11,047 nt of DNA from Candidatus Hodarchaeota archaeon (lineage in GTDB: Archaea > Asgardarchaeota > Lokiarchaeia > Sigyniarchaeales > SOKP01), in assembly GCA_048886685.1 (NCBI GenBank), contig JBHLKM010000039.1, positions 1 through 11,047 of the forward strand. Direction: 5' to 3'. Numbering within the stretch: the first letter of the stretch is position 1; the number at the start of each line of letters is the position of its first letter. Below the pieces are notes generated by a model that searched no databases, was not told the DNA's origin, and was given only the letters and a program-made list of their open reading frames with translations. Of the stretch, positions 4,895-10,360 are shown piece by piece. The position numbers were made by a program, and so were the translations under genes.

Positions 4895-4935
4895 TAACCG
4901 TTTCACGATCAAATAGGTATAAAATTATACCTAAT
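4895..4935 (+). repeat. TAAC-anchored site A: 14-mer TAACCGTTTCACGA plus palindrome AGGTATAAAATTATACCT
   Basis: 14-mer at 4895-4908 is identical to 9759 and 10346. Palindrome at 4915-4932 (TAGGTATAA-AA-TTATACCTA at 4914-4933) has the same offset as in the 9526/9643 units. Confidence 0.85.
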
Positions 4936-5151
4936 TTTAACCATCGTCTAACGACAAATAATAGGAAGAATAAATGTTGTATAAATGGTTAGTTAAAATT
5001 AGAAATATAGACAGAAATGTGAATTATATATACTTGAAATGTTTTTTTAATATTTAGAAAGAATTAGATAGTTTATGAAAATTTTTAAATATAAAATTAT
5101 ATTTATTCAAACTCCAATCTTAAATCCTTAAATAGTGGAGCTAATTTTAAA

Positions 5152-5754
5152 ATGAATGATACAAAAGAGAAAATTCGGTTATTTGAGTTTAATGACGAAA
5201 AAGAAGAATTTCAAGAGATTGAGATAAAAGATGATATTCCTTTATATGAATATTTAGATCCAAAAATCGCACTTCTTTTTGTTGATCCACTACATAATAC
5301 TATATGGCTATGGTTTGGAAGAAATTCATTTAGAATGCGGAATCCGGCATCAAAAATGGTTCACTCTATAAAGGATAGACTTGATGTTCCTTATAAAATC
5401 AGAATAATAAGCCAAGATAATGAACCTGATACCCTTAAGGAAATATTAGGTTTAAAATTTGAGATTGGTCTAAACTTACCCAATTATGACTTTATACCTG
5501 AGCTTTTGGAGATAGAATCTAAAAAAATCGAATCTTTAATAAAAGAGAATCCTGATAATGAGTTAGTGATTGAAAGAAAATCTCTTCCAGAAATCATTGA
5601 TGAGGATTTATTAGAAATCTCTAAAAATGATAAGCTTCCGGTATTAACACAATTTGCTTTAAGTGAATTTTTAAAAAGAGGAATTATGACTGAATTCTAC
5701 AAAAATGTGGTAAAATTTCTATTGACACCTCTCCCTCATAATCAAGAATATTAG
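5152..5754 (+). CDS. Single gelsolin-like domain protein with an uncharacterised C-terminal region
   Basis: LD..IALLFVDP..NTIWLWFGRNS...ASKMVHSIKD...IRIISQDNEPDTLKEILG matches the gelsolin-domain pattern (l.s..vfilD...iwvW.G..s...v.qg.Ep..F) seen in Lokiarchaeia. Confidence 0.7.
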   Translation: MNDTKEKIRLFEFNDEKEEFQEIEIKDDIPLYEYLDPKIALLFVDPLHNTIWLWFGRNSFRMRNPASKMVHSIKDRLDVPYKIRIISQDNEPDTLKEILGLKFEIGLNLPNYDFIPELLEIESKKIESLIKENPDNELVIERKSLPEIIDEDLLEISKNDKLPVLTQFALSEFLKRGIMTEFYKNVVKFLLTPLPHNQEY

Positions 5755-5798
5755 ATACCATCCATGAATTAATAAGAAAGAAATCGTTATACCTAAAT

Positions 5799-7013
5799 AT
5801 GGTACTAGTACGGAGGGAAGGAGTTCTCCTAGAAGCAACTGAGAACGAGTTTGAAAATCAGGCTGTCTTAAACCCTACGGTGGTTCAGCAAGGAGATACA
5901 TTACATTTATTCTATCGCGCTGTAAAAGAAGGAAATTATTCAAGTATTGGTTATTGTAAATTGGAAGGACCCTTGAATATCATAGAAAGGAAAAATAGTC
6001 CTATTTTGTTTCCTGAATATGATTATGAAATACATGGTACAGAAGATCCAAGAATCGTTTTTCTTGATGGTACTTATTTTATGTTTTACACGGCCTATGA
6101 TGGAAAAAATGCGTTAATAGCATACGCAACTAGTAAAGACCTAAAAACATGGGAAAAGCATGGAATAATTTCAGCTAAAATGAGATACGATGAAGCAGGG
6201 AATTTTTTCCATTTTTCAAAACTAAAAGAGAAGTATCATTTCTTTATATCATATTATAAGGATGTCGTTGCTGAAGATGTACTTTTATGGGAGAAAGATT
6301 CATTCATTTTTCCAAAAAAATATAATAATAAGTTTGCACTGTTCCATAGAGTATTACCAGATATTCAAATTGTTTGTTTCGATGATTTTAAAGATTTGAC
6401 AATCGATTTCTGGAAGGATCATCTAAAAAAATTAGGCGATCATGTTGTAATGGAGCCAAAATTTGGATTCGAATCAAGAAATATCGGTGCTGGAGCACCA
6501 TTAATAGAAACTGAGAGAGGTTGGCTTATGATATATCATTCTGTAGAAGATTCTAATAGGGGTAAGGTATATCACGCAAGTGTCGCCCTCCTTGATAAAC
6601 ATAATCCATATAGGGTAATAGGACGGCTTAAAGAACCTCTCTTTTCGCCAACTGAAGATTATGAAAAAATTGGAGATATAGATAATGTTGTTTTCCCTAC
6701 AGGTACTGCAATATTTGGAGAAAGGCTTTATATTTATTATGGTGCCGCCGATAAAAGAATAGCTGTAGTATCAGTAAATCTGGATAAACTTATTCACGAA
6801 CTCTTGGCGTCTGATTTAGAGGTTGGAATTGGTTTTTTAGCAGGGCAGATCTTTAATCTTACAATTAAAGAAGAAAAAAGCTTAACTCAACTTAAGAATT
6901 TATTGAACCAAAAAGAATATCTTTTATTGATGGCAATTGGTTGGTTAACAAGGGAAAATAAGATTCTGAGTAGAATTGATTCAGATGAACTAATCGTTAG
7001 ATCTATAAGGTAA
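5799..7013 (+). CDS. GH130 (DUF377) glycosidase/glycoside phosphorylase with C-terminal DUF2582-like winged helix
   Basis: AVLNP, YRAV, GTEDPRI, YTAYDG, IGAGAP, WLMIYH, NVVFPTG and YYGAAD are GH130 five-bladed propeller motifs. The tail IGFLAGQIF...LLMAIGWLTRENKI is DUF2582-like. Confidence 0.88.
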   Translation: MVLVRREGVLLEATENEFENQAVLNPTVVQQGDTLHLFYRAVKEGNYSSIGYCKLEGPLNIIERKNSPILFPEYDYEIHGTEDPRIVFLDGTYFMFYTAYDGKNALIAYATSKDLKTWEKHGIISAKMRYDEAGNFFHFSKLKEKYHFFISYYKDVVAEDVLLWEKDSFIFPKKYNNKFALFHRVLPDIQIVCFDDFKDLTIDFWKDHLKKLGDHVVMEPKFGFESRNIGAGAPLIETERGWLMIYHSVEDSNRGKVYHASVALLDKHNPYRVIGRLKEPLFSPTEDYEKIGDIDNVVFPTGTAIFGERLYIYYGAADKRIAVVSVNLDKLIHELLASDLEVGIGFLAGQIFNLTIKEEKSLTQLKNLLNQKEYLLLMAIGWLTRENKILSRIDSDELIVRSIR

Positions 7014-7310
7014 CTATTAAAAAAAAATCATTTCAATTATCTAAGATCTAAATTTTTTAAAGTTTTTGTCTTTTTTTAAAATTAATTTATCGAATTTTAT
7101 ATTGTGGAACTGTCTTTCGATTTTTTTAAAGATCAGACAATTAATGTTATTGTAATCAAATAAATTGAACCTTATCCAGTAAAATTGTGGATAAATAACA
7201 TCTAAAAATTTAAAAGTGGTAAGATTATAAAATAATTGCAGTATTTCTAATGAGAAAAGCAAATCCTAATTTTTTTGGCAAATATATACATTTTTAAAGA
7301 GTGTTTTAGA

Positions 7311-9758: not shown

Positions 9759-9773
9759 TAACCGTTTCACGAA
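9759..9773 (+). repeat. TAACCGTTTCACGAA site
   Basis: Exact motif, located where a third tandem unit would begin. Confidence 0.9.
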
Positions 9774-9863
9774 AATTACTTTCAATTTTAAAGAATAATT
9801 ATCATATTTTCTTTCGAAATCTTAAAACTAACTAAATAGATATATAATTTTAACTGAAAAGAT

Positions 9864-10088
9864 ATGGTAATTCTAAGTCTTGAAATGACTCGCAAGATGA
9901 TGCGTAAATCTAGCGAAATTTCATTTTGGGGATCTTGGATTCTCTGGATCATTATCTTAATATTAGAGTCAACTTCAGGGTTCACCTTCAATTGGTTTAT
10001 CTATTGCGGACTAATAGGAATGGGAGTTATTTACGTAATTACTAATGCAATCATAAAATTCCAATTAAAAAACAAAGGTCAGGATTAA
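9864..10088 (+). pseudogene. 5'-truncated copy of the DUF2178-like membrane protein
   Basis: Homology to 113..430 starts at about 9871 (codon ~34). The first TM helix and the 33-66 promoter are missing, and there is an in-frame TGA at 9855. It could still be translated from ATG 9864. Confidence 0.7.
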
Positions 10089-10330
10089 TGGCGAAGAAAA
10101 CTAAAGAAGAGGAGTTTACTACCAGAATCAAGGAATTACGGGCTAGATATAATCTGACTCAGAGTGATTTAGCTAAAATGGTTAATGTTCGGCGCGAAAC
10201 GATCCTTTATATTGAAAAAGGAAAATATAATCCTTCTCTTGTTCTAGCTCATAAAATCTCAAAGGCATTAAACTCTAAAATTAACGAGATATTTATCTTT
10301 GCTGATGATCAAGATACTAATCCTATTTAA
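9871..10330 (+). repeat. Direct repeat copy 2 (partner 213-672)
   Basis: About 95% identical and ungapped. Confidence 0.95.
10088..10330 (+). CDS. XRE-family HTH regulator, second copy
   Basis: 77/80 aa identical to 430..672 (DEVFL versus NEIFI). Confidence 0.93.
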
Positions 10331-10345
10331 TTTTTTATTATTTTA

Positions 10346-10360
10346 TAACCGTTTCACGAA
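10346..10360 (+). repeat. TAACCGTTTCACGAA site
   Basis: Exact motif starting 16 bp after the XRE copy 2 stop. Confidence 0.9.

Follow-up and report, generated by a model that had tools for sequence, protein, structure and literature searches.

One-armed sites arranged around a symmetric hub suggest a variant of Xer-type module mobility in Lokiarchaeia

The window, meaning the whole stretch of 11,047 nucleotides analysed here, is the entire contig C39 of a 4.4-Mb Lokiarchaeia genome (G000), and it raises the question of what a 14-bp sequence recurring between its genes represents. The sequence is repeated without mismatch at 4895, 9759 and 10346, always between genes and on the + strand, as originally predicted, and such a recurrence by chance is improbable, as shuffled sequences average 0.55 matches even when up to three mismatches are allowed. 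The genome as a whole contains six exact copies, all on the small contigs C39 and C28, and near copies on C41 and C23. Comparison of related genomes points to a real, lineage-wide system of gene modules bounded by one-armed sites and centred on a symmetric hub, apparently a variant of Xer-type module mobility whose enzyme we infer.

Results

Three one-armed sites in the window

The 14-mer consists of a 6-bp core, TAACCG, and an 8-bp arm, TTTCACGA, an arrangement called here site A; in site B, which occurs outside the window, the identical arm stands behind the inverted core. At C28:204-224 of the same genome the core is enclosed by two arms (arm'-TAACCG-arm), forming a palindrome around a 6-bp spacer, referred to as site F, and the 14-mer can thus be parsed as the spacer plus the right arm (type A). 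Read in these terms, the window contains the following features.

113..688, + strand: site-less full-length membrane and XRE unit, second copy of the unit in the 9759-10345 cassette
4860..4894, + strand: 35-bp module-end element, conserved and containing a 6-5-6 palindrome, directly upstream of the site at 4895
4895..4908, + strand: type A one-armed site (core 4895-4900, arm 4901-4908)
4895..9758, + strand: A-to-A module of 4864 bp, with a gelsolin-like ORF (5152-5754), GH130 (5799-7013), a GT4 fusion (7275-9512) and the 117-bp repeats
9525..9758, + strand: two 117-bp tandem units, starting with arm-less cores at 9526 and 9643
9759..9772, + strand: type A site; the 77 bp from its core on are identical to C28:1-77 (reverse), the upstream flanks unrelated
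9759..10345, + strand: 587-bp A-to-A cassette, with a 5'-truncated membrane ORF (9864-10088) and an XRE regulator (10088-10330)
10346..10359, + strand: type A site, joined 1 bp past the end of homology with the site-less XRE-unit copy
10398..10691, - strand: coiled-coil ORF carried by the following module; an A site likewise adjoins the homologue in locus L022

Five sites had been claimed in this region, but the count is three (4895, 9759 and 10346). At 9526 and 9643 only the first six bases are shared with the 14-mer, and because the core there lacks its arm and a 30-bp homology with locus L023 continues unbroken across 9526, neither is a member of the family or a full site. The 117-bp tandem repeat itself (9525-9758, 87%), the 587-bp unit and the distances of 14-16 bp from stop codons are as described in the original prediction, and no enzyme is encoded in the window, in agreement with its proposal that the enzyme lies elsewhere. 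The two 117-bp units are possibly an old scar, or a duplication in register with 9759. A scan for promoters and terminators around 4895 returned nothing exceeding chance.

The modules of the window carry GH130, the GT4 fusion, the XRE regulator and a protein whose likeness to gelsolin (ORF 5152-5754) is weak; the GH130-GT4 block is also present in two other site-bearing loci, L022 and L023. The 35-bp end element was found directly 5' of an A core in 11 of its 12 copies, and might serve as a site for an accessory protein. On C28 of the same genome (25472-25540), a 55-bp empty A-to-A unit consists of a degenerate site and this element.

Window positions 210-688 have a 95% copy in the XRE unit at 9868-10344, with homology stopping 1 bp before the core at 10346, while eleven homologous loci in relatives have the membrane and XRE unit with neither an A nor a B site at its ends. 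Taken together, these observations suggest capture, and judging from this comparison the unit at 113..688 is likely to represent the donor type of the cassette. The 77 bp shared by 9759 and C28 also equal the assembly overlap length, so that this case may represent a second copy or a within-population variant. Joining of the left end of C28 to the window start was ruled out by the different gene found in relatives 5' of window position 1.

Elsewhere in the window, a glutamine amidotransferase (TrpG-like) is split over two ORFs on the minus strand at 703-1186, apparently a broken gene, and positions 1831-4569 encode a 912-aa DUF2341/LamG surface protein, membrane-anchored and ending in a cytoplasmic tail, which has many paralogues on C6, C15, C16, C19, C20 and C22. 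The coiled-coil ORF holds 84-bp tandem repeats (10431-10647). A significant foldback with a z of about -3 (-3.3) spans 4888-5002, beginning at the first site; the sites at 9759 and 10346 do not fold.

Flank comparisons point to exchange at the sites

Spacer and arm are well conserved across 168 A and 157 B sites, which owes partly to the search pattern, and the opposite side is only AT-rich; a second arm is not conserved in these 325 sites. We compared the 50 bp 5' of the core and the 50 bp 3' of the arm, taking flanks as alike at 80% or more and as different below 60%. Among 392 distinct sites, one flank is alike and the other different in 475 pairs (283 A-A and 192 B-B), which are non-independent events, yet involve dozens of sites from many assemblies. 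Both flanks are alike in two pairs, and no A-B pair has either flank in common. Several of the one-flank pairs reach 100% identity on the matching side. Of 174 ends of homology between loci, 55 lie no more than 20 bp from a site, where random placement gives 10.7 on average and 19 at most, and the position of the sites relative to genes is not fixed.

These comparisons place the exchanges inside the 14-mer, with the orientation of the spacer respected and the arms directed away from F, and we consider it very probable that site-specific recombination operates at these sites. As a rule, tyrosine recombinases make the exchange within their site and only where the spacers agree in identity and orientation (for pdif sites, PMC13141974). 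The scan of the genome and of related Lokiarchaeia that had been proposed as a check thus finds the sites to be crossover points across more than 100 Lokiarchaeia loci; of the two earlier interpretations, junction scars of repeated site-specific recombination agree with this pattern, and element ends fit it poorly.

Arrays run outwards from a single hub

A gene-less linker recurs between a B and an A core, and measures 137-139 bp core to core in 95 of 107 distinct linkers (search window of about 125-153 bp). Despite this fixed length, the linkers divide into 27 sequence families, and one end of the B-linker-A unit has the arm inside the unit, the other has it outside.

The arrangement can be followed in a 300-kb contig (G064:C4), in which 25 one-armed sites extend over 47 kb and all 25 are directed away from F, the eight on its left pointing left and the 17 on its right pointing right; there are no exact sites elsewhere in that genome. 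The orientation also flips at F in G060:C41, G061:C42, G104:C84, G016:C57 and G000:C28. Over all loci, neighbouring sites comprise 214 same-direction pairs, 15 flips at F, three converging pairs and one divergence without F, the last two classes being the exceptions to the polarity rule. The divergence (L139:3300-4240) has as its centre a 911-bp arm-less segment between two outward-directed B sites. Alternation of A and B predominates among the sites. In G078, which belongs to another genus, the spacer of F and three array cores carry one common one-base variant.

The islands formed by these arrays have a G+C of 0.25-0.28 versus 0.31-0.34, and almost no genes are common to the islands of different genomes. 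In G064 and G104 they border orthologues of genes on C23/C9 of G000, which indicates that the locus is chromosomal and probably fixed. Orthologues of the island-flank genes are scattered in the single-contig genomes G005 and G021, and no syntenic empty site could be placed in them. In two genomes, a ParA-like ATPase and two small ORFs directly adjoin F (L214:12866-14934 and L020:11132-13145), with differing orientation to the arm.

The cargo consists mostly of toxin-antitoxin and defence genes; it includes toxin-antitoxin genes of the nucleotidyltransferase-HEPN, PIN, DUF433/DUF5615 and TumE-like kinds, PtuA/Old-type ATPases, NucS-like nucleases, and TPR and NB-ARC proteins. Singletons make up 383 of the 439 cargo clusters. 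Linkage to a recombinase, which the original prediction had suggested looking for, is not seen, as none of the 579 cargo ORFs of the islands is an integrase; nor do the recurrent cargo clusters examined include phage, plasmid or island replication or transfer genes.

Exact A sites occur in 39 of the 152 genomes of the order, in one family only and in seven genera. F was seen in about a dozen of the 152, never more than once per genome, which makes it only a candidate for a universal dif, though most of these genomes are fragmented MAGs. The B-linker-A unit had 20 matches in genome collections (12 named Promethearchaeota, four uncultured archaea and four bacteria), 90 in metagenomes and none among viral contigs. 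One Patescibacteria-labelled contig (L057) holds two matches to the B-linker-A pattern, through either a binning error or transfer.

A candidate enzyme and dispersed palindromes

The only tyrosine recombinase of G000 is a 307-aa XerA encoded on another contig (C2, locus L001), which has intact catalytic residues and aligns to P. abyssi XerA, without the additional domain of IntI. XerA is also the sole tyrosine recombinase in G009, G017, G023 and G062. A resolvase is absent from four of five genomes searched, and no IS110 or Y1 transposase was found in any of the five. By elimination, the enzyme is probably XerA.

The same arms, with varied 6-bp spacers, form up to 14 chromosomal sites per genome in 124 of 132 genomes of the family. 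The spacer of these dispersed palindromes is always 6 bp in G000, where no G+C-containing 7-6-7 inverted repeat other than the arm palindrome is over-represented, and in a sample of 16 the spacers have 52% G+C inside flanks of 22%. They are candidates for multiple dif or XDS-like sites. Intergenic examples lie in G000 at C1:218637, C2:42166, C4:159469, C10:147371 and C16:50421, as well as in relatives; they are orthologous between genomes, have no arrays beside them, and are also present in a few distant Asgard families. In G032 (family f4), there are 63 loose palindrome matches, compared with seven in the control. No conserved canonical dif was found in G000, and a canonical dif candidate at C20:37098 was rejected, as it lies within a gene and is at chance level across 133 genomes.

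Discussion

The explanation that we favour, and hold to be somewhat better than even, is that these are one-armed sites of the tyrosine-recombinase type, through which modules would be exchanged via a central F by the host XerA acting in trans. The full site would comprise an 8-bp arm, a 6-bp spacer and a second 8-bp arm, the 14-mer being its conserved half. One chromosomal locus would hold the single complete, symmetric F, with the spacer TAACCG, flanked on both sides by modules of about 0.1-6 kb, each of which would open with spacer and arm and close with a degenerate, AT-rich half. F is likely to be one partner in nearly every reaction, which would account for the mixture of A and B sites, the outward polarity and the single F per genome. 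Recombination of F with a site of the same orientation would excise or insert the modules beside F and regenerate it, and recombination with a site of the opposite orientation would invert the segment between them to the other side of F, flipping its spacer. Two one-armed sites of opposite orientation recombining with each other would produce converging arms and a second F, an outcome rarely or never seen. For an A-to-B module to leave, a B-to-A partner would have to go with it, a role that the gene-less linkers of 137-139 bp would fill. Less firmly, the enzyme would be the host's single XerA supplied in trans, and the palindromes with other spacers would be additional XerA sites, insulated from one another by their mismatched spacers. 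The mechanism applies to modules that already bear an arm. A bolder extension, which we put forward only tentatively, is that housekeeping XerA serves as an integron-like engine, with the hub capturing, inverting and reordering defence cassettes, and the up to 14 sister sites acting as parallel, non-cross-reacting dif or chromosome-organising sites.

The same module system might instead be run by another enzyme, either a divergent or visiting integrase brought by a plasmid or virus or a recombinase family unrecognised by Pfam, which we regard as unlikely, if worth considering. Characterised archaeal dif sites, such as T. kodakarensis dif (PMC11840125), have an inner TAA/TTA that is missing from these arms. 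The recognition helices of XerA seem not to vary in step with the palindrome, and XerA with similar helices is found in family f16 and in several f2 genomes that have no palindrome. These points count against XerA. Some relatives do possess extra tyrosine recombinases; however, none of these is common to the site-bearing genomes or encoded in an island, the occurrence of the palindrome through nearly the whole family points to a core host protein, and the B-linker-A unit has no viral match.

That the palindrome is bound by a non-catalytic protein, a regulator or chromosome organiser, and that the modules are shuffled by short-homology recombination over the 14-mer, is improbable. The dispersed intergenic palindromes, with their orthologous spacers and no adjoining arrays, would suit such a protein, but it would leave unaccounted for the half-sites with an invariant spacer, the outward polarity from one F, the spacer co-variation in G078 and the constant length of linkers from 27 families, and the placement of the sites relative to genes varies. 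It is very improbable that the sites are the ends of an IS or MITE family, the B-linker-A unit being the MITE: a unit devoid of genes, constant in length and with inverted ends of 6 bp does recur, but its arm placement is asymmetric, its linkers are of common length and unrelated sequence, its copies cluster at one locus, the recurrent cargo clusters contain no transposase, and searches of five genomes for the IS110 and Y1 families gave none.

An integron-derived attC cluster (CALIN) is hardly credible, even though integrons occur in Asgard genomes (PMC9668308), the cargo is similar and the 4895 region folds, as G000 has no IntI, an inverted partner accompanies 11 of 174 A sites versus 15 in shuffles, the core is paired in 16 of 174 folds, the other two window sites do not fold, and the arrays run both ways. 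The sites are thus not canonical attC, as had been stated from the outset; the integron-style G/TT crossover suggested alongside fails for want of IntI and of an attC-type partner, the site parsing instead as a 6-bp spacer and one arm.

If exchange through F by XerA is correct, it would provide Asgard archaea with a concrete means of acquiring toxin-antitoxin and defence genes and of changing their order. A symmetric hub that takes one-armed partners of both orientations would be a geometry new to tyrosine recombination. The model would also name a testable substrate for the Asgard XerA, suggest a multi-site dif arrangement and give a reason for the assembly breaks in the array region.

In the open-access literature on Asgard mobile elements, archaeal integrons and archaeal tyrosine recombinases, we found no description of such a Xer-exploiting module system. 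Integrons (IntI, attI and attC) resemble it in having one master site, an ordered cassette array and toxin-antitoxin and defence cargo, whereas here there is no IntI and no attC hairpin, the array extends in two directions and spacer identity is required. In the R64 shufflon, Rci acts by inversions at sfx sites that combine a spacer with a conserved arm and a variable one. A spacer with one conserved arm is present here too, but no recombinase gene adjoins the array, and whole gene modules are gained and lost, whereas the shufflon swaps gene ends.

Archaeal XerA/dif systems have one XerA per genome and inverted arms around a 6-bp spacer (PMC2958812). A single XerA with intact catalytic residues and a 6-bp spacer between inverted arms are found here as well, but the 11-6-11 layout of archaeal dif, a single-copy site similar to the bacterial consensus, is replaced by 8-6-8, with other arms, up to 14 copies and varied spacers. 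With their inner GAAA/TTTC, the arms are closer in look to difSL and difH (PMC5357621), and the many copies with different spacers recall bacterial XDS sites (PMC11840125).

In IMEX at the dif of Vibrio cholerae, as in the TLC phage attP and the Neisseria GGI, the incoming site consists of the central region and one arm, the other arm being degenerate, and successive insertions yield an array while regenerating the full site (PMC5357621, PMC9226527). One conserved and one degenerate arm, with a full site beside the array, are likewise observed here; in contrast, the central site is symmetric, the array lies on both sides, both spacer orientations are used, and the cargo is small gene modules without a phage-like match in an archaeal host with one Xer. 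The target of IMEX is the chromosome-dimer-resolution dif; F, a candidate for such a site, is single-copy and has a chromosomal neighbourhood that is probably fixed, but is unseen in most MAGs.

The dif (pdif) modules of Acinetobacter, together with its chromosomal dif module islands, are small and rich in toxin-antitoxin genes; their sites alternate in orientation, exchange requires matching spacers, and the array itself encodes no enzyme (PMC13141974, PMC12907356). Catalysis in such modules is by the host Xer in trans, a part that would here fall, by elimination, to XerA. An inverse orientation of the sites on either side of a module is a shared feature, and so, judging from the flanks and from the spacer variant of G078, is exchange restricted to matching spacers, but pdif sites have two conserved arms (XerC and XerD) and varied spacers, as opposed to one arm and one spacer, and the central palindrome and the empty linkers of fixed length are particular to the present system. 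A linker and an A-to-B module, taken together as an excisable unit, recall the module pairs proposed for Acinetobacter.
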